This document shows positions 2,553-26,040 of a stretch of 32,000 nucleotides of DNA, in pieces. Made by a program: the position numbers and the translations under genes. This DNA comes from Candidatus Iainarchaeum sp. (lineage in GTDB: Archaea > Iainarchaeota > Iainarchaeia > Iainarchaeales > JAZDEL01): the NCBI GenBank assembly GCA_043808785.1, contig JAZDEL010000001.1, positions 30,001-62,000 of the forward strand, read 5' to 3'. Each line of letters opens with the position of its first letter. The first letter of the stretch is position 1. The notes under the pieces were generated by a model that saw only the letters and a program-made list of their open reading frames with translations, made no database searches and was not told where the DNA came from.

Positions 2553-2665
2553 CCTCCTGTCCGGTTACTCCGCCCCTGTATGGTTTCCTTTATGCGTATA
2601 ACTAATGGGGATGTATGCTTTAAAAGGGTTTTTATAGGTGCGCGGCGCCTTAACCCCCCTAACCC

Positions 2666-2688
2666 AAAAAACCCGCCACGGGCGGGTT
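2666..2688 (-). terminator. Hairpin plus T-run directly after a tRNA 3'-end remnant
   Basis: The minus strand reads TCCCCCCTGCA-T-AACCCGCC-CGT-GGCGGGTT-TTTT. This is an 8-bp perfect stem with a 3-nt loop and a T tract, right after an 11-nt copy of the tRNA-Leu 3' end. Confidence 0.5.
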
Positions 2689-2700
2689 ATGCAGGGGGGA
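2687..2700. repeat. att-like direct repeat, left copy (TTATGCAGGGGGGA)
   Basis: Perfect 14-nt identity with 6268-6281, which covers the discriminator base, the 3' acceptor strand and 3 nt of the T stem of tRNA-Leu plus 3 flanking nt. Confidence 0.6.
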
Positions 2701-2766
2701 AACAACACCCCCATGGTTCTGTCTGCCCGCCCTCTTTTAAGGATTTCGGTTGAGGAAGGCGAGGCT

Positions 2767-3963
2767 ATGAGAAAGTATCTGCATGACTACGATAAGATTC
2801 TTGAAGGGGAGACAGCGCGCGTCAATAACGCCCAAATCTCCGAGGCAAACAGGAAAATACTCCTCGAATTCAACGACTACAACCTCGGCCGCGGCCTGAG
2901 CAAGGCGAGGATTTCTAGGAATTCCATCAGCCTCAGGCTGATTGCGAAGCGCCTTGGGAAGGACCTCGCAGGCCTTACGCGCGGCGATGTTGAGCGCCTG
3001 CTCATAATGCTGAAAAAGGAAAACAAGGCTGTTTCCTCCATAGAGACGGACAAGGTTGTTCTCAAGTCCTTTTTCAAGTGGCTCGGCAACGGGGAAACGC
3101 CGGAGTGCGTTAAATGGTACAAATGCAGGGCATCCATCAGCGCAAAGAAGCTGCCCGACGATTTGCTCGAGCAGGAGGAAATAAAGAGGATGCTGAAATT
3201 CGCTTTGAACAAGAGGGACAAGGCGCTTATCGCCATGCTGTGGGACAGCGGTGCAAGGATAGGGGAAATCGGCGGCCTGCAGATAAAAAACGTTGCCTTT
3301 GACAAGTTCGGCTGCAGGATAATTGTTGACGGCAAGACAGGCATGAGGCGCGTAATGCTTGTGGACTCCGCCCCCTACCTGCTTGAATGGATAAATTCGC
3401 ACCCCAATTCGCAGGACCGCGAAGCCCCGCTCTGGGTTGCGATAGAGCAGAATGCAGGGGAGCAGCTGACGCACAGATGCATAATGAAGATGCTGAGGAG
3501 GGTTGCGAAAAGGGCGAAGATAAAGAAGCCCGTCAACCCGCACCAGTTCAGGCATTCCCGCGCAACCTACATGTCGCAGTTCCTCACCGAGGCGCAGATG
3601 AAGGAATACTTCGGCTGGGTGCAGGATTCCAAGATGGCTGCGCGCTATGTGCATCTCTCGGGGAAGCAGGTTGATGATGCGATACTCAGGCTGCACGGCC
3701 TTGTCGATGACGACAAAAAGGAGGACATCCTAAAAAGGGAGCCATGCCCGCGCTGCAATGAAATTAATGACGTGAACAACAAATACTGCCACAAGTGCTG
3801 GCTGCCGCTCACGCAGCAGGCCACTCAGGAAGTTCAGGAAGGGGAGCAGAAAGACCAGGAGGGGATAGTCGCCATTGTGAAGCTGCTGGAGATTGCCGGG
3901 CGCAACCCCGCGCTGATGAAGCAGGCAATAACCGCGATGCAGCAGCCCTCGGCTGTCGGATAG
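2767..3963 (+). CDS. Tyrosine recombinase / phage-type integrase with C-terminal zinc ribbon
   Basis: Catalytic set is present: SGARIGE (Arg), HQFRHSRAT (H-x-x-R), AARYVHLS (Tyr). Extra C-terminal CPRC-X10-CHKC. Start placed at ATG 2767, with a TTTTAAGG box at 2734-2741. The GTG-2638 extension would run across the att repeat. Confidence 0.85.
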   Translation: MRKYLHDYDKILEGETARVNNAQISEANRKILLEFNDYNLGRGLSKARISRNSISLRLIAKRLGKDLAGLTRGDVERLLIMLKKENKAVSSIETDKVVLKSFFKWLGNGETPECVKWYKCRASISAKKLPDDLLEQEEIKRMLKFALNKRDKALIAMLWDSGARIGEIGGLQIKNVAFDKFGCRIIVDGKTGMRRVMLVDSAPYLLEWINSHPNSQDREAPLWVAIEQNAGEQLTHRCIMKMLRRVAKRAKIKKPVNPHQFRHSRATYMSQFLTEAQMKEYFGWVQDSKMAARYVHLSGKQVDDAILRLHGLVDDDKKEDILKREPCPRCNEINDVNNKYCHKCWLPLTQQATQEVQEGEQKDQEGIVAIVKLLEIAGRNPALMKQAITAMQQPSAVG

Positions 3964-4103
3964 GCCGAGTAATCAGCGGCTTTCAATCCGGTTCACCCTA
4001 GCGATGGCCTCAATCGCCATCTGCTCGGTTTCCCCTCAGCCTTCGGGTTAGTTCCTCAATCCTCTCGCTGAGGATGGTGTAATTCCTCATCGGGGAGTTG
4101 CTG

Positions 4104-4292
4104 TTAAACTGCATCCGTGTTGCGTCCCTCATTTTCGCCCCCCTGCCTTAAGTATTTTTCCAGCTGTTCCAGAATGTAAACAAACGCCCTGCCGTGGGTT
4201 TTCTCGAAGTGTTCAAGGTTTTTGTAGTTCATTTGCCGCGCCAGCCCGTAAAGGAAAACGTGCAACGAACCTGCAACAGGTTTATATCGCAA
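4104..4292 (-). CDS. Hypothetical small protein (possible element-encoded regulator)
   Basis: 62-codon ORF (TTG start, internal ATG at 4232) divergent from abiEi across an AT-rich region. No motif recognised. A competing + strand ORF lies at 4194-4394. Confidence 0.25.
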   Translation of the reverse strand: MRYKPVAGSLHVFLYGLARQMNYKNLEHFEKTHGRAFVYILEQLEKYLRQGGENEGRNTDAV

Positions 4293-4312
4293 TTATACTA
4301 TAATGATATAAT

Positions 4313-4409
4313 TGTGATATGGATGCGGCCGAAGGGTGCGGGAGCCGAAAAACCCCGCGATATGTTTATATTACAATTTACTAAAAAGTATTAAACTGTG
4401 ATATGGATG
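4313..4409 (+). repeat. 13-nt direct repeat TGTGATATGGATG (4313-4325 and 4397-4409)
   Basis: The second copy contains the abiEi GTG/ATG start codons. The first copy lies 84 nt upstream and opens only a 27-codon frame. Confidence 0.6.
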
Positions 4410-5039
4410 AAATACAGGATTTTGGTCAGGCGGCTGCTGCTGTGGGAGGGCAGGTATATTTCAGATGCCGAACTGAAAGTGCTTTGCGCAAGGCTGAAAA
4501 TTCCCTACAAAAGCGCGATAATGTATTTGTTTACCAACAAGTACCTGAAGCGGATTGTCCGCGGATTCTTTTACATTCCCTCCGCGGAAGAGCGCAGGCT
4601 GAAAACAGGCGGGCCGAATGTCCTCGAAGCAATCGCAAAAGCGATGGACTATAAGAAAGTGAGGGACTGGTATTTCGGCCTGGAGACCGCGATAAAACTG
4701 AATGCCATAACGCACGAATATTTTACAATAGACTATGTCGTTTCCGACACAATCTTCAGGGCGAAACCGATGGAAATTCTCGGGAGGAGGGTGAAGTTTG
4801 TAAAGCTCAAAAAAGGGCTTTTCGGCTTCGGGACAAAAAGGAACGGCCCCATAATCTACTCCGGCCTGGAGAAAACGCTCCTTGATTTGATACACCTGAA
4901 AAAGCACGGCGGCAAAAAAGACGGCGCGATAAGGGACGATTTAATCGAATGGGCTGAAACAGCCTCAAGAAAAAAACTGAAGGAATATTCGAAGCATTAC
5001 GGCATGTCGGTCAGGAAAGCCGCGGAGGCATTGGAATGA
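4398..5039 (+). CDS. abiEi: AbiEi-family type IV antitoxin / transcriptional regulator
   Basis: N-terminal wHTH ending in LKRIVRGFFYIP. C-terminal domain with YFGLETAIKLNAIT and SGLEKTLLDLIHL. Stop overlaps the abiEii start (ATGA). The start may instead be ATG 4407. Confidence 0.8.
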   Translation: MIWMKYRILVRRLLLWEGRYISDAELKVLCARLKIPYKSAIMYLFTNKYLKRIVRGFFYIPSAEERRLKTGGPNVLEAIAKAMDYKKVRDWYFGLETAIKLNAITHEYFTIDYVVSDTIFRAKPMEILGRRVKFVKLKKGLFGFGTKRNGPIIYSGLEKTLLDLIHLKKHGGKKDGAIRDDLIEWAETASRKKLKEYSKHYGMSVRKAAEALE

Positions 5040-5995
5040 TTCCTTCGGATTTTACCGAAAAAGTCGCGGAAAGCCTCGGAATAAGGGAAACAAAGCTTGT
5101 GGAAAAGGACCTTTACCTGCAGGGGCTTCTCATTGAATTGTCGAAATCGGAATATTTTTCGGAAAATTTTGTTTTCAAGGGCGGCACCTGCCTGACAAAA
5201 GCCTATTTCGGCTATTATCGCTTTTCGGAGGACCTCGACTTTACCTGGCTGCGCCAGGAAGCATTTAAGGGCAAAACCGAGAATCAAATCCGCAGAATGC
5301 TTTCTGAAGAAATTAACAAGATAATGGAACTGCTTGCGGTTACTGCAAAAGAATTGGGCCTTGACTTCAGGGCGGAAAAATCCGATAAGCATTATGTCCA
5401 GCTCGGCGGCAGCAACCGCTTTGCCACATTCAAATTCTGGTACAAGCCCGGCAATCCTGTGGAAAATGAAACATTCATAAAAATCCAGTTAAGTTTTGTG
5501 GACAAAATAATTCATGCACCAAAAAAGCACAAACTTGCGCCGCTCTCCCCGCCGGGCAAAAAGGAACTGGAGCTCGAATACCCCGAATATGCGGCAATGG
5601 CGCTGGAAAGCCCCTCAGTTTACTGCTACGATTTGAAGGAAATCGCTTCCGAGAAAATCCGCGCACTGCTCACGAGAAGGGGCTTCAAGGCAAGGGACAT
5701 AGTCGACCTGTACATGCTTGACAAGAAGGGAATTACAATCAAGTCTGCTAGGGCAATGGCTTCCGAGAAAACCCTGTTCATGCTCCGCTATCTCAAATAT
5801 GCTGAGCACCTGAAGCTCAGGCATTTCGGCGGAAACTTCGCGCTCGGAGAGGAGCAGAACCTGCTGGTAAAACAGCAGGGCAAGGATTTCGGGAAGTTCG
5901 CGGAAAAGGCGCTCGCGGAACTTGACGGACTTGCGGAAGAAATAAGGCGAAAATCGGCAAAGTGGCGCGGCAGGGAAAAGGGAGATGTCATATAA
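5036..5995 (+). CDS. abiEii: AbiEii/AbiGii-family nucleotidyltransferase toxin
   Basis: Hallmark FVFKGGTCLTKAYFGYYRFSEDLDF nucleotidyltransferase motif. 4-nt overlap with the upstream antitoxin gene. Confidence 0.9.
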   Translation: MIPSDFTEKVAESLGIRETKLVEKDLYLQGLLIELSKSEYFSENFVFKGGTCLTKAYFGYYRFSEDLDFTWLRQEAFKGKTENQIRRMLSEEINKIMELLAVTAKELGLDFRAEKSDKHYVQLGGSNRFATFKFWYKPGNPVENETFIKIQLSFVDKIIHAPKKHKLAPLSPPGKKELELEYPEYAAMALESPSVYCYDLKEIASEKIRALLTRRGFKARDIVDLYMLDKKGITIKSARAMASEKTLFMLRYLKYAEHLKLRHFGGNFALGEEQNLLVKQQGKDFGKFAEKALAELDGLAEEIRRKSAKWRGREKGDVI

Positions 5996-6140
5996 GGCGG
6001 TTATATGACAATCAATTTGCCGAAAACAAACAAAAACTTAATTAAGAAGTTTGGGCATTATAGTTGCAACAGAAAAAATCGACTAATCCTTATTTGGAGC
6101 ACGGCACAGAACCTTGGGTTAAATGCAGGGGGAGCATCCC

Positions 6141-6205
6141 AACAGCCTTTTCGGAGCGCGGGATTTCGCGCTGCTCAATCCCGCTTCCAAAAGCCTGGGG
6201 AAAAC
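6141..6205. repeat. Conserved hairpin element, copy 1
   Basis: AACAGCCTTTTCGGAGCGCGGG (22 nt) and CCCGCTTCCAAAAG (14 nt) are identical to 10498-10519 and 10525-10538. The arms are complementary (CCTTTT..GCGGG / CCCGC..AAAAGG). The loop is 17 nt here versus 5 nt in copy 2. Confidence 0.7.
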
Positions 6206-6242
6206 CGCAGTTGTTCGCCCGCAGGCGAACTGTTTCTTTCGC

Positions 6243-6269
6243 AAACCTTTCTTTCCTAAAGAAAGGTTT
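6243..6269 (-). terminator. 12-bp perfect hairpin immediately 3' of tRNA-Leu
   Basis: AAACCTTTCTTT-cct-AAAGAAAGGTTT ends one base from the tRNA 3' end. T-rich arms fit archaeal termination or processing. Confidence 0.45.
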
Positions 6270-6281
6270 ATGCAGGGGGGA
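6268..6281. repeat. att-like direct repeat, right copy (TTATGCAGGGGGGA)
   Basis: Identical to 2687-2700. Overlaps the 3' end of the intact tRNA-Leu. Confidence 0.6.
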
Positions 6282-6354
6282 GGATTCGAACCCCCGAACG
6301 CACTAAGCGACAGCGCCCTGAACGCTGCTGGTTTGGCCGCTTCCATACCCCTGC
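6271..6354 (-). tRNA. tRNA-Leu (anticodon CAG), class II, no encoded CCA
   Basis: Hand-folded. Acceptor GCAGGGG/CCCCTGC with discriminator A. Anticodon arm CAGCG-TTCAGGG-CGCTG. Long variable arm (TCGCTTAGTGCGTTC). T arm GGGGG-TTCGAAT-CCTCC. Confidence 0.9.
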
Positions 6355-6505
6355 ATTGCCCGGTTTGCGCGCCTGGTTTGGGGCTGCAACCCGGCTGCCC
6401 CTCCCTCACGCACGGCGTAACCGCGGTTGCCCGCAATTGCGCCATTTGCCTGATAACTAACAATTACGAAAAGTATTTAAAGTTAGGAAGGGATTAAATA
6501 AACCG

Positions 6506-8421: not shown

Positions 8422-9363
8422 TTATTTGCCCTTCAGAAATTCTTTCGCCTGCCGCATGTATTCCTCCAGCGTGAATTCCGCCAGGTGTTTCAGGGTGTTT
8501 TTTTCCACCGAATCCATGAGTGCCCTGAAGTATTGCTCCTTTTTTGCGGAAATGTTCAGCAACGGAAAGCCTTCGTCAATCAGCGCCTTATTCAATATCA
8601 GGCGGCAAACCCTTTTGTTCCCGTCAAGAAAGGGGTGGATTTTGTAAAGCCTGTAATGTGCCTGCGCCGCCTTTTCGACAGGGTTCAGCGGCGTAGAGTT
8701 GTACCATTCCACAAACCCGTCAAGCAGCCCCCCAACCTCGCCGTGATGCGGCGGCCTGTAGCCTATCTCCCTGCCTTTCGGATTTTGCACATCCCTTGCC
8801 TGCAGGTAAACCTGCCCCTCCCTGATTTTTCCGGGCGTTTTCCCTTCAAAGCCCGCCATTATGGTTTTGTGCAGGCCGAGAATGTATTGCCTGTCTAGGG
8901 CATGCTTTTCTTTTATGGATTCGACCGCATTCAGCATGTTCTTGCTTATCCGCTCCCGCGCACTGAAACCGCCTTCCTTTTTAAAAGCGTTCCTGACATC
9001 TTCCAGCCCGACATCGACTTCTTCCGTTGTCAGTGTTGACAGGGTAAAAAGGATAGTGCTGTCCACTTCATATTTTCTCCGCCTTACCGCGGAAAGCGCG
9101 GCAAACTTCCTGTTAAATGCATCCCTGATAAGCAGCGCCTTTATCACGCTGTCCTTTGAAATGAGTTCCGCGGCATATTCCTTTCCCGCGAGTTTCAAGA
9201 TTATTTCCCGCCTGAATGATTCCCCGATTTTAGCCAGCCCCCCCTTCGCGGGCTTTTTGGTGCCGACATATTTGCTGAATGTTTTTGATTTCGCCAAGGT
9301 GCGGTAGCCCAAATCAAGATAATAGTATTTTTTATCGTGGATTGTTTTTGTGCGCAGCTTCAT
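8422..9363 (-). CDS. fic: Fic family protein (AMPylase-type Fido domain)
   Basis: Fic motif HPFLDGNKRVCR (HxFx[DE]GN[GK]R). Confidence 0.85.
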   Translation of the reverse strand: MKLRTKTIHDKKYYYLDLGYRTLAKSKTFSKYVGTKKPAKGGLAKIGESFRREIILKLAGKEYAAELISKDSVIKALLIRDAFNRKFAALSAVRRRKYEVDSTILFTLSTLTTEEVDVGLEDVRNAFKKEGGFSARERISKNMLNAVESIKEKHALDRQYILGLHKTIMAGFEGKTPGKIREGQVYLQARDVQNPKGREIGYRPPHHGEVGGLLDGFVEWYNSTPLNPVEKAAQAHYRLYKIHPFLDGNKRVCRLILNKALIDEGFPLLNISAKKEQYFRALMDSVEKNTLKHLAEFTLEEYMRQAKEFLKGK

Positions 9364-9368
9364 GCATT

Positions 9369-9465
9369 ATTTAGGCTAACAAAAGTATTTAAAATAGTTA
9401 GCCTAAATTTGCGGTTCACCATTTAGGCTAACAAAAAACTGCAATAGTGTCAGCCTAACTGCCCG
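9369..9465. promoter_or_regulatory. Tandem palindromic operator-like repeats around the fic TATA box
   Basis: ATTTAGGCTAACAAAA occurs at 9369-9384 and 9421-9436. Inverted partners are GTTAGCCTAAAT (9398-9409) and GTCAGCCTAA (9449-9458). A TATTTAAAATA box lies between the first pair, 23-33 nt upstream of the fic ATG. Confidence 0.6.
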
Positions 9466-9471
9466 CGCGCC

Positions 9472-10401
9472 TCACAGCCCCAGCTGCGAAATCATTCCCT
9501 TTATGCTCTTCACAGCCTCTGAAAACAGCCCCTTCTCTTTCTCATCAAGCTCGAGCTCGACAACCTTCTCCGCCCCCGTTGCCCCGACCCTCACAGGCAC
9601 GCCGATGCAGACATCATTATGCCCGTACTCCCCTTCCAAAAGAACCGAGCACGCGAGTATTTTCTTCTTGTCCTTCAAAACGCACTCCGCCATTTCAGCA
9701 AGCGCCATCGCGGGTGAATAATAAGCCGAACCCTGCTGGAGTAGGGCAACAATTTCAGCGCCCGCGTTCCTCGTGTGCTTAACTGCCTCTTCAATCCTCT
9801 TCTCATGCATTAATTCAGTAATCGGTATCCCCGAAACAGTTGAATAGCGGGGCAAAGGAACCATTGTTTCCCCGTGCGACCCCAGCACCATTGCCTTTAT
9901 GTTCTCGTGGCTAACCCCTAATTCGGAAGCGATAAAACTCGCAAACCTTGCGCTGTCCAGCACGCCCGCCATTCCCAAAACTCTTCCCCTTTCAAAACCG
10001 CTCTTTTTCAGCGCCAAATAAGTCATAACATCCAGCGGGTTTGTTGCGACAATAAGCGCCGCATCTGGTGAATATGCCGCGGCATTTTCAGCAATTCCCC
10101 CCACAATTTTCGCGTTCGCCCCGAGGAGTTCCTCCCTTGTCATTCCCGGCTTCCTTGCCAATCCTGCAGTAACAATAACCAAATCCGAACCCGCGGTTTC
10201 CGCAATATCCGCGCTTCCCCTCACGGAGCAGTTTGCCCCGTCTATGGGCATGCCGTGGGTTAAATCAAGCGCCTTTCCCTTTGCAATGCCCTCCGCAACA
10301 TCAATGAGAACAACATCCCCGAGCCTGCGGTTAAGGGTTATATGTGCAGTTGTGGCGCCCACATTCCCAGCGCCGATAATGCTTATTTTCCTCTGCGCCA
10401 T
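9472..10401 (-). CDS. mdh: Malate dehydrogenase (LDH-like family)
   Basis: GAGNVGATTAH Rossmann motif. GLARKPGMTREEL has Arg at the substrate-discriminating position. LDSARF and SHGETMVP motifs present. Confidence 0.9.
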   Translation of the reverse strand: MAQRKISIIGAGNVGATTAHITLNRRLGDVVLIDVAEGIAKGKALDLTHGMPIDGANCSVRGSADIAETAGSDLVIVTAGLARKPGMTREELLGANAKIVGGIAENAAAYSPDAALIVATNPLDVMTYLALKKSGFERGRVLGMAGVLDSARFASFIASELGVSHENIKAMVLGSHGETMVPLPRYSTVSGIPITELMHEKRIEEAVKHTRNAGAEIVALLQQGSAYYSPAMALAEMAECVLKDKKKILACSVLLEGEYGHNDVCIGVPVRVGATGAEKVVELELDEKEKGLFSEAVKSIKGMISQLGL

Positions 10402-10497
10402 GAAAAATTACGGTGTGGGAAGGGTTAAAAACCGTGCCTTGCGCGGGTTTTGGGGTGGCGTTTTTACGCCAAATTTTTGCCCCCAAACCCGCACCGG

Positions 10498-10550
10498 AAC
10501 AGCCTTTTCGGAGCGCGGGCATAGCCCGCTTCCAAAAGGCTGGCGAAAAC
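10498..10550. repeat. Conserved hairpin element, copy 2
   Basis: Same arms as 6141-6205, with a short CATAG loop. Confidence 0.7.
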
Positions 10551-10552
10551 TT

Positions 10553-10585
10553 GCACCGGAAATCAACCCTCCATCCGTTTAAAAA
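10553..10585 (+). promoter_or_regulatory. Conserved 20-mer + TATA module, copy 1
   Basis: GCACCGGAAATCAACCCTCC, then 5 nt, then TTTAAAAA. Lies upstream of the 10640 ORF. Confidence 0.55.
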
Positions 10586-10639
10586 CCCGCGCACCGAGAT
10601 ATTACTTCTGCCACTAATTTTTTTGGCACAGGTGTAACT

Positions 10640-10879
10640 ATGGCCATCATCGACGTTTCCGCACTAAGGCTTAACCTGCACATAGGCAGCCTTAACATAA
10701 CCCTCGACCTCGGCAACAAAAAAACGCGGAGGAACCTTTCCAAACTTTCCTTTTTCGCGGGGCTCTGCGTGCTGCTTGCGGGGGTTTTGTTTTACAATTC
10801 AATTCCAGCGCCCTTCAGCACGGGAATAATTCTCGCGGGGGCGATGCTTGTCGCGGCCTCCAATTTGCTGTTCGGGTGA
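10640..10879 (+). CDS. Hypothetical small membrane protein
   Basis: 79 aa with two predicted C-terminal TM helices. Positioned downstream of promoter module copy 1. Confidence 0.4.
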   Translation: MAIIDVSALRLNLHIGSLNITLDLGNKKTRRNLSKLSFFAGLCVLLAGVLFYNSIPAPFSTGIILAGAMLVAASNLLFG

Positions 10880-10919
10880 GGGCGAAACCAATAATAACCG
10901 CAAAAGCGTTATTTAACAT

Positions 10920-11588
10920 ATGAGACTTGCCCTCAATCCCGCCAACAAAGAAAGGATGCGCCTTTTGAAAAAACTGGTCAACGAGGCGTGGCAGACAAGG
11001 AGGACTTTCCAAAGCCAAACCCCGAAATCAAGGCATGCCGAAACCGCAAAACGCCTGAATATTTTCAGGGTGCGCAGGGATGCAAAAATGGTTTTGGTCG
11101 CGGAAAATGCCGGCTACGGCACCATTAGGATTGTCGCATTCCCGAAGATGAATGATTGGCGAACTTTCGAACGTGCGGAAAAGATACTTGAGGACAAGGG
11201 GCCCGCCTCCTTAAACCGCGGCGGGATAGGGACAATCGAGCTTGTTAAACGCTCCAAATACCTAATGCTCTCCTACTCCCAAAACCAGTTCATTACGGGG
11301 CACGGTGAAGAGGCGGGGAAGCACACCGTACCGCGCGGCAAGGCGGCACAGTATCTTGGCTGGAGATACCGCGCCTTAAGGGAGGCGGTGCTCATTGCAA
11401 ATGAAAAGGGCGTTCCGTTATACATTCCCGAGCGGGAGTGCGTGAAACCGAATTTTGTGGAGGATTTGGATAAGGCGTGCTTGGAAATTGGGCTTCATGA
11501 GGTTAAAAAGCCACGTCCCGCTTATGCAGACGGAAGAAAAACGGTAGTGTTTGTCGGTGACGACCCGAGCCGGAGATATTTTTCCTGA
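10920..11588 (+). CDS. Hypothetical protein
   Basis: 222-aa ORF with no overlapping alternative of comparable length. No motif recognised. Confidence 0.6.
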   Translation: MRLALNPANKERMRLLKKLVNEAWQTRRTFQSQTPKSRHAETAKRLNIFRVRRDAKMVLVAENAGYGTIRIVAFPKMNDWRTFERAEKILEDKGPASLNRGGIGTIELVKRSKYLMLSYSQNQFITGHGEEAGKHTVPRGKAAQYLGWRYRALREAVLIANEKGVPLYIPERECVKPNFVEDLDKACLEIGLHEVKKPRPAYADGRKTVVFVGDDPSRRYFS

Positions 11589-11690
11589 AGCCGCTTTGGG
11601 CATAACAAACAAACGTCTCCGCGGAATAAAAATTTAACCCGCGTTGGTTCGGTTGGCTTGCGGCGAACTCTGCGTCGGTTCGGCGGGTTC

Positions 11691-11723
11691 GCACCGGAAA
11701 TCAACCCTCCGCAGGTTTTTAAA
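11691..11723 (+). promoter_or_regulatory. Conserved 20-mer + TATA module, copy 2
   Basis: The 20-mer is identical to copy 1, then 5 nt, then TTTTTAAA. The ATG of the next gene lies 33 nt after the box. Confidence 0.55.
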
Positions 11724-11755: not shown

Positions 11756-12343
11756 ATGCTTGGAAAAAAGCCGAAAGGCGTGAAGCCGACCGAGGAAAGG
11801 ATAAAGTCCATACAGGCAAGGGCAGGCAAAATAAGCAAAATCCTGCATAGCACGAAAGAGGTCGAGGCAAGGATTAATGCCGCAATCGCCCGCTCCTGCA
11901 CGCTTGTATTGGGCGACCATAAAAACCTTAACCTGCTGAAGAAGGTTTCGGAGAGCATGGAAAAGGCGCGCATACCGAGCTTCTGGGCGAAAATCGACGG
12001 GAGCAACGTAAACGACATCCTCAAGTCCAAACTATTCATGAAGGACTCGGACTTTATCGTGATGATTGACGGCAGGGGCGCGGGAACAGTGGGAGAGTCT
12101 CACTACGCAATCTCAAACGAGAAGATTGCGTCGAAACTGCACCTCTTTGTGCACTCCTCGAACGAAAAGGACGTCTGGGACTACAAAAAGCACTATGTAT
12201 TTTTCCCGCGCTTCGGATTCTGGGATTCGGAAAAGTCGCTCCTTGAATCCGCGGCGAAGGTTGCGGAGAAGGAAATCCGCCGCCTTGCATACCTCGAAAT
12301 AGTGAGGGAAACGCAGTGCTGGGGCTGCCCGAAATATGCTTAG
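11756..12343 (+). CDS. Hypothetical protein with a possible nucleoside 2-deoxyribosyltransferase-like motif
   Basis: 195-aa ORF. SDFIVMIDGRGAGTVGESHYAI resembles the D-x-GT-x-x-E-x-x-x-A signature of NDT-like Rossmann proteins (weak, by eye). Confidence 0.6.
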   Translation: MLGKKPKGVKPTEERIKSIQARAGKISKILHSTKEVEARINAAIARSCTLVLGDHKNLNLLKKVSESMEKARIPSFWAKIDGSNVNDILKSKLFMKDSDFIVMIDGRGAGTVGESHYAISNEKIASKLHLFVHSSNEKDVWDYKKHYVFFPRFGFWDSEKSLLESAAKVAEKEIRRLAYLEIVRETQCWGCPKYA

Positions 12344-12374
12344 GGGATTGTACGGGAAAAAGTTAAATATATGA

Positions 12375-12653
12375 ATGGCTGAATATAGGTGTATGGGCAT
12401 GGAAAACCTGAACAACTGGCTTGAGTTTGTTTCCGACAGCGGCGTTTTGAGCGTCCTGCTCTACCTCCGCGAATACAACCCTTCGGTAAGGATTAAGGAT
12501 ATGGGCGAAAACCTCGGCATAGGCGCAGGGAAAATCAGGGATATAGTTTCACAATTGGGCAGGGAACAGATGGTGCAGGTAAGCGGCGGAGGGTATGTGC
12601 GCCTTACCGCACGCGGCAATGTTGCTGTTGAAAGGCTGATGGAGATAGGCTGA
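12375..12653 (+). CDS. Small winged-helix DNA-binding protein
   Basis: LSVLLYLREY..VRIKDMGENLGIGAGKIRDIVSQLGREQMVQV..YVRLTARG fits a helix-turn-helix plus wing pattern. The start may be Met 12393 or 12399, given the TAAATATA box at 12362-12369. Confidence 0.6.
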   Translation: MAEYRCMGMENLNNWLEFVSDSGVLSVLLYLREYNPSVRIKDMGENLGIGAGKIRDIVSQLGREQMVQVSGGGYVRLTARGNVAVERLMEIG

Positions 12654-19324: not shown

Positions 19325-19498
19325 ATGGTTAAAATGGACCCCTCCGTCTCCCGTTTCATCTTCGGCACAATCTGCTGGCTCCCCCTCGGCTTCTGCGTGG
19401 CGCTGGCGAGATGGGGGCGTATGGAGGAGGCTTATGCACTTGCGAAGTACAGCGCGGTGTTTTTGGCGGGGGCCAGCATAGCGGGATGGCTTGGTTAA
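19325..19498 (+). CDS. Candidate 57-aa membrane protein
   Basis: MVKMDPSVSRFIFGTICWLPLGFCVALARWGRMEEAYALAKYSAVFLAGASIAGWLG. Its last 12 codons recur at 22013-22048 with only synonymous or conservative changes, which argues for translation. Confidence 0.5.
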   Translation: MVKMDPSVSRFIFGTICWLPLGFCVALARWGRMEEAYALAKYSAVFLAGASIAGWLG

Positions 19499-19505
19499 AA
19501 AGCTT

Positions 19506-19538
19506 GCACCGGAAATGCACCCTCGGGAGATTTTTAAA
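19506..19538 (+). promoter_or_regulatory. Conserved 20-mer + TATA module, copy 3
   Basis: GCACCGGAAATGCACCCTCG (17/20 identical to copies 1 and 2), then 5 nt, then TTTTTAAA. Upstream of dcm. Confidence 0.5.
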
Positions 19539-19608: not shown

Positions 19609-20826
19609 ATGAATGATTTAAATAGTTTCGGAACAGTTACTGTTATGATGGCGAAGGGACACAAAAAAATGGGCCTGAACTTCATCGACCTTTTCGCGGG
19701 AGCCGGCGGGCTGTCGTGTGGCCTGGAAAGGGCGGGGTTAAATTGCATACTGGGCGTTGACTTCGACAGGGCGGCGATGGAGACCTTCAAAAGGAACCAC
19801 CCGAACGCCGAGGTCTTCGTGGGCGACATAGCGAAGCTCGACGATGAAACCGCGCTTAGGCTGACAAAAAACAGGGAGGTCGACCTCGTGTGTGGCGGCC
19901 CGCCGTGCCAGGGCCTTTCAACGGTGGGCAAGGGGATTCCAAACGACCCCCGAAACCTGCTTTTTCTGCAGTTTGTGAGGCTGGTGAAACTTTTTTCCCC
20001 GAAATACATAATGCTGGAAAATGTGACCGGGTTGCTGGGCAAAAAGAACCGGAACATCCTTAATGGCATAATGTCCGAGTTCGAAAAACTGGGCTATCAT
20101 CTCGATGTCCAGGTGCTGTCGGCGCACCATTACGGCGCCCCGCAGAAAAGAAGGAGGACGATTTTCATAGGGAACAGGATGGGCTACGCGAATATCTTCC
20201 CCGAAATAATGTTCGATGCGCACGACGCATGCTTGCCCCCCGCCAAGACGGTCGGCGACGCGTTCAAATCCCTGGGCATGGGGGACGGCGGGACGCATAA
20301 CCACGATGTCGGCGGCGCATCAATTCCCGAGGGCACAGAAAGGGAGATTATCAGGCGCATCCCAGAGGGGCGGTATATCCGCTATGAAAGCGACGAACTC
20401 GAGCTTCTGCCGAAGGAACTGCATCTTGGCGTTGACTGGCGCACAATTCAGGAGGGCAGGCTGCGGCAGGCGAAATACAGGAGGCTCCACAGGGATGAGC
20501 CCTCCCCGACAATAATGACCGACGGGCACACATACTACCACCCGATTGAGGACAGATTCATCACCGTGAGGGAGGGCGCGGCTATACAGGGCTTTCCCAA
20601 TGATTTCGTGTTCGAGGGCACGGTCTCGCAGCAGTGGAGGCAGGTCGGCAACGCCGTTCCGCCGCCGCTTGCGGAGGCGATCGGGAAGGCGATACTGAAA
20701 ATGGAACTCGAGAAAAATGGAACAATACCGCGGACCAAGGATTTGGAGGGGATACGGAGCCACGCGTTCAATTACAAAACAAAATCAAACACAAACAGGG
20801 GACAACAGAAATTATTGGTTAGATAA
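19609..20826 (+). CDS. dcm: DNA (cytosine-5)-methyltransferase
   Basis: Motif I FIDLFAGAGG, IV GGPPCQGLS, VI ENV, VIII QKRRRTIFIG, X GNAVPPPLA. Confidence 0.92.
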   Translation: MNDLNSFGTVTVMMAKGHKKMGLNFIDLFAGAGGLSCGLERAGLNCILGVDFDRAAMETFKRNHPNAEVFVGDIAKLDDETALRLTKNREVDLVCGGPPCQGLSTVGKGIPNDPRNLLFLQFVRLVKLFSPKYIMLENVTGLLGKKNRNILNGIMSEFEKLGYHLDVQVLSAHHYGAPQKRRRTIFIGNRMGYANIFPEIMFDAHDACLPPAKTVGDAFKSLGMGDGGTHNHDVGGASIPEGTEREIIRRIPEGRYIRYESDELELLPKELHLGVDWRTIQEGRLRQAKYRRLHRDEPSPTIMTDGHTYYHPIEDRFITVREGAAIQGFPNDFVFEGTVSQQWRQVGNAVPPPLAEAIGKAILKMELEKNGTIPRTKDLEGIRSHAFNYKTKSNTNRGQQKLLVR

Positions 20827-20840
20827 AATGCATAATATCG

Positions 20841-21554
20841 CTAGGGCTCTATATCGGGAAATCTCGTGTCCGATACGTCCTCAATATTAAGGGGGGATTC
20901 CTTTGGCTTGCCAAGTACCTTTAAAACGGCATAGAAGGTATAATTGTGGATTGGAAAACTGTTAATTACCTTGGCTCTTAGTCGCAGGGTAAACCTTGTA
21001 TCAAAGGGGGGCGCGCCCAGATTGGCCGGATCACACCTTAAACTATAGAACCCATAACCATCGCCAACTTGCATATAATAACAGTTTTTAAGCTCGTAAA
21101 ATTTGAAAAGAGCATCGGAGGTGGTTGTAAGGCTCGTGTCTTCAAAGTTAATCTGGTCCTGATGCCTGTCTTCAGCCGTCAATTCCCCCTTATTTTTGAC
21201 AAATTTATTTGGCTTGAATTTTTTGCCGTTCGCCACTTTCAGCGCCCCAAGAGCGGTATATTTCCTAGTCAACGGATCATCTTTTGACCAAGTCCAGCCG
21301 CCCCCTTCGGACCACTTAAAAGTCCTTTGACCATAATCCGCCTTAAGGTCCGCCTTTATCTCAAGGTTGTATTTGTTGCCTCCATGAATAAAAATGGCGT
21401 CAACACCACCGCCGGCTCCTGCCCGTTGAAAGCCGGGAGCCAAAACGCCCCTCTCACGCATAATCTCGACCACCTTATCCTCATAGGCATCGCCCTTGTT
21501 GTATGGCGCCTTTTTCTTCATGGGCTTTTTGTTAAGATCCAACTGCATTGGCAT
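20841..21554 (-). CDS. Putative type II restriction endonuclease (PD-(D/E)xK-like)
   Basis: Convergent with dcm (14-nt gap). GGVDAIFIHGGNKYNLEIKA fits D-x12-ExK. Start placed at Met 21554, where TGATG overlaps the vsr stop. The ORF-track start at 21611 would overlap vsr by 58 nt. Confidence 0.6.
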   Translation of the reverse strand: MPMQLDLNKKPMKKKAPYNKGDAYEDKVVEIMRERGVLAPGFQRAGAGGGVDAIFIHGGNKYNLEIKADLKADYGQRTFKWSEGGGWTWSKDDPLTRKYTALGALKVANGKKFKPNKFVKNKGELTAEDRHQDQINFEDTSLTTTSDALFKFYELKNCYYMQVGDGYGFYSLRCDPANLGAPPFDTRFTLRLRAKVINSFPIHNYTFYAVLKVLGKPKESPLNIEDVSDTRFPDIEP

Positions 21555-21985: not shown

Positions 21986-22048
21986 CGATATGCAAATTGC
22001 GGCGTTTTGTTCCTGGCGGGGGCGAGCTTGGCGGGGTGGCTTGGATAG
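21986..22048 (+). pseudogene. 3' fragment of a paralog of the 19325-19498 small ORF
   Basis: RYANCGVLFLAGASLAGWLG* aligns with KYSAVFLAGASIAGWLG*. No start codon follows the in-frame TGA at 21929-21931. Confidence 0.5.
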
Positions 22049-25416: not shown

Positions 25417-26040
25417 CTACCCCAGCCTCTCTTTAATCGCTTTCAGGGAAACGAACTGTTCCCTTTCTATTTCATCGAGGCGGAAGGAGATGTAGGCAAC
25501 TTTCCTCTGCATGCTTGGGATAAGGATGAATTCAAGGGCATTTACCCTGCGCTTGGTTTTTTCTATCTCCCTTATAAGGCGCTTCATTATGTTCTCGGTT
25601 TTGGCGAGTTCAATTGATAACTGTAAATATTCCTCGAAGCGCTGGGCGCATTCATCAAGGCGCGCGGAGGTGCTCATAAGGCTGTAGCCCCTTTCGGATG
25701 GCTTGCGGATGAAATCTGCTTTGCTTATTTCAGCGATTTTCACGCCCATTATGTTCCTTTCCCCAACGGAAAGGTTGGAGTTTTCAATTACGGAGAGGGA
25801 AGCTGCCTCAAGCTCGAGGGAACCCTCGTTCATTGTTGCTTTTGCGAGAGCGGAGTAAGATTCTGCGGCTTTCCTGTCAAGCTCGCCGCGGATGTCCTTT
25901 GCTTCCTTCATTATGCGGAAGAATTCCGCAATAAGGATGTCGCGCTTCTGCCTGAGAAGTTCGTGCCCCTTGCGCGCGAGGTTTATTTTCTGCCTTGTTT
26001 CTATGAGTTCAAGGCGGGTTATTTTCATTTCGTCTTCCAT
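25417..26040 (-). CDS. atpD: A-type ATP synthase subunit D
   Basis: KITRLELIETRQKINLARKGHELLRQKRDILIAEF is typical of V/A-ATPase subunit D. Last gene of the operon. Confidence 0.9.
   Translation of the reverse strand: MEDEMKITRLELIETRQKINLARKGHELLRQKRDILIAEFFRIMKEAKDIRGELDRKAAESYSALAKATMNEGSLELEAASLSVIENSNLSVGERNIMGVKIAEISKADFIRKPSERGYSLMSTSARLDECAQRFEEYLQLSIELAKTENIMKRLIREIEKTKRRVNALEFILIPSMQRKVAYISFRLDEIEREQFVSLKAIKERLG

Follow-up and report, generated by a model that had tools for sequence, protein, structure and literature searches.

A 20-nt element that recurs at a constant distance from a TATA box within the 32,000-nt stretch of archaeal DNA analyzed here (the window) is probably a cis-regulatory site for a lineage-conserved DNA-binding protein, placed upstream of BRE/TATA and defining a regulon centered on radA. 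The same element, hereafter the box, is found in other archaeal genomes, where the recombinase gene radA is its recurrent target, and at promoters of further recombination, repair, modification, mobile and defense genes.

A recurrent promoter box in a variable island

The preliminary description of the window reported three copies of this element, with identities of 20/20 and 17/20, an exact 5-nt gap to a TTT(TT)AAA sequence, a + strand gene in front of each copy and unrelated sequences further upstream. A repeated search of the window returned the same positions and identities, and both the gap and the orientation hold for all three copies (Table 1). The upstream flanks are indeed mutually unrelated: copy 1 is preceded by a hairpin repeat, copy 2 by a GGTTCG-rich tract and copy 3 by the last part of a 57-aa ORF. 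All 17 specified positions of the common pattern GCACCGGAAATNNACCCTC are shared by the three copies, whose variation is confined to box positions 12, 13 and 20, with copies 1 and 2 being identical even at the free positions. Among 100 dinucleotide-preserving shuffles, none contained a match to the box at three or fewer mismatches. The next best window sites carry at least four mismatches and are equivalent to the shuffle background, and a search for decayed or intermediate copies with up to five mismatches yielded background only, none of it with a TATA box. The recurrence of the element in the window is confirmed as real and far beyond chance. The box is absent from the housekeeping promoters of the window, and the Rfam covariance models, applied to the window at gathering thresholds, gave no matches.

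Table 1. Box copies, associated TATA boxes and downstream genes in the window (positions are those of the window) and at other loci.
Feature	Location	Strand	Sequence	Remarks
Box copy 1	10553-10572	+	GCACCGGAAATCAACCCTCC	Exact at 17/17 conserved positions
TATA box, promoter 1	10578-10585	+	TTTAAAAA	5 nt past box copy 1, spacer atccg
79-aa membrane ORF (promoter 1)	10640-10879	+		No family match; Shine-Dalgarno-like AGGTG before ATG
222-aa orphan (promoter 1)	10920-11588	+		No family match
Box copy 2	11691-11710	+	GCACCGGAAATCAACCCTCC	20/20 identity with copy 1
TATA box, promoter 2	11716-11723	+	TTTTTAAA	5 nt past box copy 2, spacer gcagg
195-aa orphan MFH1224222.1 and 92-aa weak-wHTH protein (promoter 2)	11756-12653	+		wHTH ORF at 12375-12653
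Fic gene, 379-aa ORF, N6/N4 methyltransferase	After the 195-aa/92-aa pair	+		
Box copy 3	19506-19525	+	GCACCGGAAATGCACCCTCG	17/20 identity with copies 1 and 2; perfect CACC-N7-CACC tandem
TATA box, promoter 3	19531-19538	+	TTTTTAAA	5 nt past box copy 3, spacer ggaga
dcm, C5 cytosine DNA methyltransferase (promoter 3)	19609-20826	+		Pfam DNA_methylase PF00145, 4.7e-74
Box upstream of radA	L091		GCACCGGAAATGCACCCTAC	Spacer cagcc, TATA box TTTAAAAA
Box upstream of radA	L102		GCACCGGAAACCCACCCTGA	Spacer atggg, TATA box TTTAAAAA
Box upstream of radA	L104/L105		TCAGGGGAAACACACCCTAA	Spacer aaagcca, TATA box TTTAAAAA
Box upstream of radA	L107/L108		TTACCGGCAATACACCCTAA	Spacer aatca, TATA box TTTAAAAA
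Box upstream of radA	L109		GCACCGGCAATGAACCCTTG	Spacer aaata, TATA box TTTATAAA
Box upstream of radA	L117		GCACCGGAAATGCACCCTCC	Spacer aaaggc, TATA box TTTAAAAG
radA	Six lineages			
HerA	L099		CACCGGCACCGCACCCC	DUF87 and HAS barrel; box variant
Rad3/XPD helicase	L012			
Radical-SAM/HhH protein	L099/L101			Similar to TIGR03916 "putative DNA modification/repair radical SAM protein" (1e-71, under model cutoff)
Two N6/N4 DNA methyltransferases	L087, L095			Nuclease genes behind
TnpB, twice	L038, L096			
LAGLIDADG protein	AR10			
AAA_16 ATPase	L049			
MazE/AbrB and PIN pair, 78-aa antitoxin-like ORF	L093			Two boxes 640 nt apart
DUF7718 and wHTH pair	L102			Just upstream of radA

The genes behind the three promoters are largely uncharacterized (Table 1). 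The 195-aa protein matches MFH1224222.1 (V1676_00280) from a Candidatus Diapherotrites MAG at 100% identity, and its 92-aa partner shows sub-threshold HTH matches only. At promoter 2, 40 nt separate the start of the TATA box from the ATG at 11756, so that the leader is short or absent. The surroundings include a malate dehydrogenase gene at 9472-10401 and an A-type ATP synthase operon, which occupies the minus strand from position 25417 on. Among named sequences, the closest relatives of its AtpA belong to Diapherotrites and Micrarchaeota, with no more than 69% identity. A much closer relative is L110, whose AtpA is 96% identical; its sequence runs collinear to the window across the ATPase operon at 86-88% nucleotide identity, and this similarity breaks off precisely where atpD ends (window position 25418). 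Because the collinearity stops there, the segment from 10.4 to 25.4 kb is regarded as a variable island. This defense/R-M island contains Fic, an N6/N4 methyltransferase, a GHKL/Mrr-like protein, two dcm genes, vsr and several orphans.

Distribution of the box in genomes and metagenomes

GTDB was scanned with one genome per species for exact matches to GCACCGGAAATNNACCCTC, with no TATA requirement. The scan returned 79 loci, compared with approximately 70 expected by chance (an estimate). Of the 74 matches outside DPANN, most seem to fall within conserved coding sequences of bacteria. The remaining five belong to Candidatus Iainarchaeum (L012, L058), archaeon GW2011_AR10 (L041) and Micrarchaeota (L038, L049), in genomes that span 30-61% GC. 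In all five of these DPANN matches, the box is intergenic and followed at 5-9 nt by an A/T-rich, TATA-like box; a simple regular expression for TATA recognized four of the five DPANN matches vs. none of the 74 others (Fisher p = 3e-6). Metagenomes were searched for a somewhat loosened core that precedes a TATA box (CACCGGAAATNNACCCT N5-16 TWTAWA), a query that preselects for the TATA box and 15 fixed bases, so that core conservation is overstated in this set. This search produced 19 loci with GC contents of 30-63%, approximately 10 of which are unique and clearly promoter-like, while the matches L084, L092, L094 and L098 look like chance or bacterial matches and were left uncounted. Two scans of viral contigs gave matches in coding sequences only, with no sign that viruses carry the box.

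These distributions indicate that the box is not island-specific and recurs in genomes of Iainarchaeota and Micrarchaeota. The preliminary description had suggested a shared transcription-factor site that co-regulates the island genes. The first half of this suggestion gains from the presence of the box at a matching distance to TATA in other genomes, including the radA promoters of six of seven lineages (see below), while regulation specific to the island is not borne out.

Conservation of the box upstream of radA

Starting from metagenome locus L091, which lies upstream of radA, a test set of radA promoters was assembled by RadA protein homology only. RadA identity across the tested lineages ranges from 71 to 92% and GC content from about 44 to 60%. 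A box is found at the matching place before the radA TATA box in six of the seven lineages (Table 1), or in five of six if the seed L091 is excluded; the radA promoter of L106 (Iainarchaeum, CP064981) is devoid of it. The probability of obtaining at least five such matches among six by chance is roughly estimated at ~1e-22. The radA neighborhoods are conserved and chromosomal, with RPA, Pus10, TGT and CBS genes, and the box has been kept upstream of orthologous radA genes across diverged genomes while its flanks have diverged. All 19 box bases of window copy 3 recur in the radA box of L117. No box was detected at the RPA genes adjoining radA, and RNAalifold did not produce a consensus structure for the radA leaders. 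We conclude that radA is, by comparative evidence, a conserved target of the box.

This conservation bears on two other explanations. According to the first, the copies are a chance recurrence or functionless, neutral remnants of a local duplication. Its probability is negligible: nothing speaks for it beyond the small copy number in the window, and it is at odds with the empty shuffles, with the retention of the box across genomes of 30-63% GC with divergent flanks and with the chance estimate for radA.

The second explanation, also raised in the preliminary description, assumes that a small mobile or recombination module, with the box as its outward-facing end, spread within the island, e.g. 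as a promoter cassette, an att-like site or a MITE end. The three exact copies within 9 kb of a variable island, the agreement of copies 1 and 2 at free positions and the mobile nature of some downstream genes elsewhere (TnpB, LAGLIDADG) would fit such an origin. The sequence similarity, on the other hand, stops sharply at the box and the TATA box, the repeat search found no inverted repeat partner and there is no flanking target duplication. A linked recombinase is also missing, since the sole integrase (2638-3963) is located 6.6 kb away beside tRNA-Leu. Together with the position of the box in chromosomal, syntenic radA promoters of six lineages and the restriction of viral-contig matches to chance occurrences in coding sequences, these observations leave a mobile module very unlikely, and this part of the preliminary description is not supported.

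Homologous gene modules without the box provide a further argument against a mobile unit. The 195-aa/92-aa pair is conserved in two other loci, L115 and L116 (60-66% and 40-53% identity), and the promoters of the pair contain no box there and present GCA(C)AAAAAGGGTTTAAA instead. The box thus does not travel with its genes, and promoters appear to have been adapted locally; it also follows that membership of accessory genes is lineage-specific. Co-transfer of the box with its genes was rejected on the same grounds.

Architecture and position of the box

The consensus nCACCGG[AC]AA[TC]NNACCCT comprises two (C)ACC half-sites that are 11 bp apart, i.e. one helical turn. In an alignment of 20 instances, position 1 is occupied by G, T or C, no base is fixed at positions 12-13 and 20, and position 19 is mostly C, followed by A-rich, BRE-like positions 22-24 and the TATA box at positions 26-33. 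The radA set, which is free of the selection bias of the metagenome query, defines A3, GG6-7, AA9-10 and ACCCT14-18 as essential, and most radA promoters read CACCGG-AAAT-N-CACCCT, i.e. two CACC half-sites at 11-bp distance. The box is a tandem without dyad symmetry and is located upstream of the TATA box. For 24 clear instances outside the window, the spacer between box and TATA box measures 5 nt (13 cases), 6 nt (5), 7 nt (3) or 9 nt (3), a spread that is looser than strict stereospecific contact predicts. The window spacers (Table 1) are not purine- or A-rich; positions 22-24 are A-rich over all instances, in lineages that have no known BRE consensus. Downstream ORFs start 54-151 nt from the box. 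In at least 10 cases, the first ORF start is found 54-65 nt after box position 1, which equals 28-39 nt after the TATA start. This short distance implies leaderless mRNAs, with the box at about -55 to -37.

The position next to the core promoter admits two further explanations. The box might be the operator of a LexA-like repressor, whose bound form abuts or overlaps the BRE, excludes TFB and is released upon a DNA-damage signal. With only 5 nt between its 3' end and TATA, the box touches the 6-7 bp BRE position, and a location so near the BRE would suit a repressor equally well. The targets (radA, herA, xpd, TA modules, transposon genes, R-M) resemble bacterial SOS regulons. This reading is weakened by the binding sites of characterized archaeal repressors, most of which overlap TATA/BRE or the transcription start or lie downstream of them, and the tandem box contains no palindrome. 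Furthermore, sites that are wholly upstream of the BRE are typical of activators (PMC5937170, PMC2241852). A repressor operator is considered unlikely.

Alternatively, the box could be an extended core-promoter element that is read by an alternative general factor, such as a paralogue of TFB or TBP or a TFB equipped with an additional DNA-binding domain, a scenario that we rate as improbable and below the repressor operator. The TFB core domain contacts roughly 7 bp (the BRE), and the conserved bases are found 8-24 bp upstream of TATA, past the reach of this domain. Between box and TATA box, the A-rich positions 22-24 resemble an ordinary BRE, and the spacer varies from 5 to 9 nt. This scenario draws on the tight coupling of the box to the TATA box and on TFB paralogues that drive damage-responsive or cyclic gene sets (PMC6101594; bioRxiv 10.64898/2026.09.06.749720).

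Genes downstream of the box

The genes that follow the box in other genomes are compiled in Table 1. Recombination, repair and modification of DNA, along with mobile and defense functions, appear to be the theme they share, as judged from approximately 20 genes, several of which are unassigned. If the box is the binding site of a conserved protein, the three island promoters (79-aa ORF, 195-aa/wHTH operon and dcm) would be co-regulated with recombination and repair genes of the host, and the island genes would represent lineage-specific recruits into a wider regulon with radA as its conserved member.

In this proposed explanation, a candidate factor would bind the two (C)ACC half-sites on one helix face, next to TFB/TBP, and would control initiation at box promoters. 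Activation through recruitment of TFB/TBP is the favored direction because the box lies upstream of BRE/TATA, and by analogy activation appears somewhat more probable than repression. The footprint of TFB-RF1, an activator that recruits TFB to a weak BRE, likewise sits just upstream of BRE/TATA (PMC5937170), and GvpE depends on a bipartite 20-nt UAS on the upstream side of the BRE (PMC2241852). With respect to the signal, we infer from the target set and from analogy that it may be DNA damage or another DNA-related state; it could equally be linked to replication or the cell cycle. DNA-damage induction has been described for radA and the nurA/herA operon in Saccharolobus (PMC6101594), and bacterial damage regulons of the activator type are reported to govern defense genes as well (PMC12392091, PMC12340889). 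An SOS-like DNA-damage or stress regulon, in which a recombination and repair core of radA, herA, xpd and a repair-type radical-SAM protein is coupled to R-M methyltransferases, TnpB/IS, homing-endonuclease-like and TA genes and in which incoming genes acquire the box, is conceivable, with our judgment leaning slightly against it. If true, the acquisition of the box by incoming defense and mobile genes would tie their expression to the DNA-damage state of the host.

The wHTH protein encoded in the island (12375-12653) is unlikely to be the cognate factor, as its homologues occur without the box and a similarity search found no resemblance to the wHTH protein encoded beside radA in L102. Several of the genes downstream of the box encode proteins without an assigned function.

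Comparison with known regulatory systems

The closest architectural counterparts among archaea are the TFB-RF1 site of Pyrococcus furiosus (PMC5937170) and the GvpE UAS of the haloarchaeal gvp genes (PMC2241852), which are also elements of ~20 bp directly upstream of BRE/TATA. Both share with the box a constrained distance and a small promoter set, and the two-part build corresponds to that of the GvpE UAS. The TFB-RF1 site is a TCTG-N5-CAGA palindrome, whereas the box is a CACCGGAAATNNACCCT tandem. Moreover, the box is unrelated in sequence to either site, lineages and targets differ, and its role is predicted from sequence. Further archaeal examples of upstream activation are the sites of Ptr2 and TrmBL1.

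A second comparison concerns the DDRE of Sulfolobales, a 5'-ANTTTC-3' motif within AATAGTTTCRGWDTACTCWS that is bound by Orc1-2 (PMC6061795). The DDRE resembles the box in being a promoter-proximal motif; it is common to a set of archaeal DNA-damage genes, at no more than about 55 bp from the start codon, in organisms whose radA and herA are damage-induced (PMC6101594). Only the TTTC core is shared, however, and it is found on the opposite strand (GGAAAT on the coding strand of the box), while the extended consensus AATAGTTTCRGWDTACTCWS is unmatched. The reverse strand of the box, NATTTC, fits ANTTTC only if position 12 is T, as in 3 of 20 instances, and the box is accordingly not classified as a DDRE. 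The targets differ as well, since the DDRE of Sulfolobus controls ups, ced and tfb3 (PMC6061795).

With regard to regulatory logic, the nearest match is provided by bacterial damage regulons that are independent of LexA. One of these is controlled by PafBC/RecA-NDp in Actinobacteria. For Caulobacter, DriD is described as the activator of a LexA-independent damage regulon (PMC12340889), and in Moraxellaceae an activator is reported to link the damage response with anti-phage defense (PMC12392091). As with the box, these regulons combine a motif that is fixed to the core promoter of recA/radA and repair genes with defense and mobile genes, but they employ sigma-70 promoters and WYL-domain factors and bear no sequence relation to it. 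The bacterial SOS/LexA regulon is similar in that its targets include a recombinase, helicases, TA modules and transposon genes; in contrast to the box, which is non-palindromic and upstream of the core promoter, the LexA operator is palindromic and overlaps the promoter. To our knowledge, archaea do not possess LexA. Overall, the box is predicted to act like an archaeal UAS, yet it matches none of the compared motifs.

Literature searches with the box sequence retrieved only unrelated primers, and no description of this box was found in the literature on DPANN promoter motifs and radA regulation. Outside Sulfolobales (Orc1-2, TFB3), we know of no conserved transcriptional circuit for archaeal recombination and repair genes, and we are not aware of any knowledge about gene regulation in the uncultivated Diapherotrites and Micrarchaeota. 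The box and its predicted targets point to a previously undescribed repair/defense regulon in DPANN archaea. The high information content of the box defines a candidate regulon that can be counted in any MAG, and the 19-bp box can serve as bait for finding its factor. It also suggests that defense islands and mobile genes plug into the DNA-repair program of their host, as has been described in bacteria. For genome annotation, the combination of box and TATA box should mark true promoters and start codons in poorly annotated genomes.

Island boundary and putative inserted elements

The window and the collinear contig of a close relative (L110) share 86-88% nucleotide identity, ending exactly at the stop codon of atpD (window 25418, L110 14043). 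Since the similarity ends there, this position is one edge of the variable island (10.4-25.4 kb). Within the island, the 3' end of a 57-aa membrane ORF (19441-19497) has a paralogous stretch, 75% identical, 2.5 kb downstream (21991-22047). Because box copy 3, dcm and a 256-aa minus-strand gene are flanked by these stretches, the arrangement suggests that the dcm cassette is an insertion between duplicated small ORFs. Within the 256-aa ORF, ARAGORN reported an unusual tRNA-like gene whose anticodon has only 2 bases (21385-21480, minus strand); this call is probably a false positive. Additionally, a tyrosine integrase and an AbiEi-like/AbiEii pair adjoin tRNA-Leu, and this segment (2638-6355) looks like a second integrated element, distinct from the island.

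Coordinates of the features described (window positions unless a contig is named)
Feature	Location	Strand	Context
Tyrosine integrase	2638-3963		
AbiEi-like/AbiEii pair	4398-5995		
Hairpin copy	6134-6205		Between AbiEii and tRNA-Leu
tRNA-Leu	6270-6355	minus	
Fic gene	8422-9363	minus	
Palindrome 1	9369-9406		Between Fic gene and MDH
Palindrome 2	9421-9458		Between Fic gene and MDH
Hairpin copy	10491-10550		Ends 2 nt upstream of box copy 1
GCA(C)AAAAAGGGTTT(T)AAA	L116		Before the genes at 123, 819, 1762
GCA(C)AAAAAGGGTTT(T)AAA	L115		Upstream of gene at 4319
radA leader region	L091 295-380		
radA leader region	L102 3962-4047		
radA leader region	L104 9921-10003		
radA leader region	L107 1568-1649		
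radA leader region	L109 9912-10003		
radA leader region	L117 9922-10003		

Promoter-associated motifs and structured elements

Besides the conserved 20-nt box, the promoter-proximal motif GCA(C)AAAAAGGGTTT(T)AAA, which is distinct from it and occurs four times in contigs L115 and L116, is another example of a TATA box-fused motif. The element carrying it encodes ParB and homologues of the 195-aa/92-aa gene pair of the window.

A hairpin element of approximately 45-60 nt (dG about -32 kcal/mol) is present twice in the window, the copies having the stem in common and differing in their loops; neither matched Rfam. The copy near box copy 1 starts with the left half of the box, GCACCGGAA, and the region 10486-10552 (+ strand) that contains it yields a folding z of -4.6.

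Genes preceded by the box are otherwise mostly leaderless, but the radA leader is roughly 75 nt long in the six lineages tabulated above. RNAalifold applied to a MAFFT alignment of these leaders returned no consensus structure; by eye, a hairpin with a CCAAA or GCCAAAG loop was recognized in the six lineages.

Finally, the gap between the Fic gene and MDH contains two palindromes (ATTTAGGCTAAC-N14-GTTAGCCTAA). As palindrome 1 brackets a TTTAAAA box that precedes the start codon of Fic by about 25 nt, it looks like a candidate operator over the Fic promoter.
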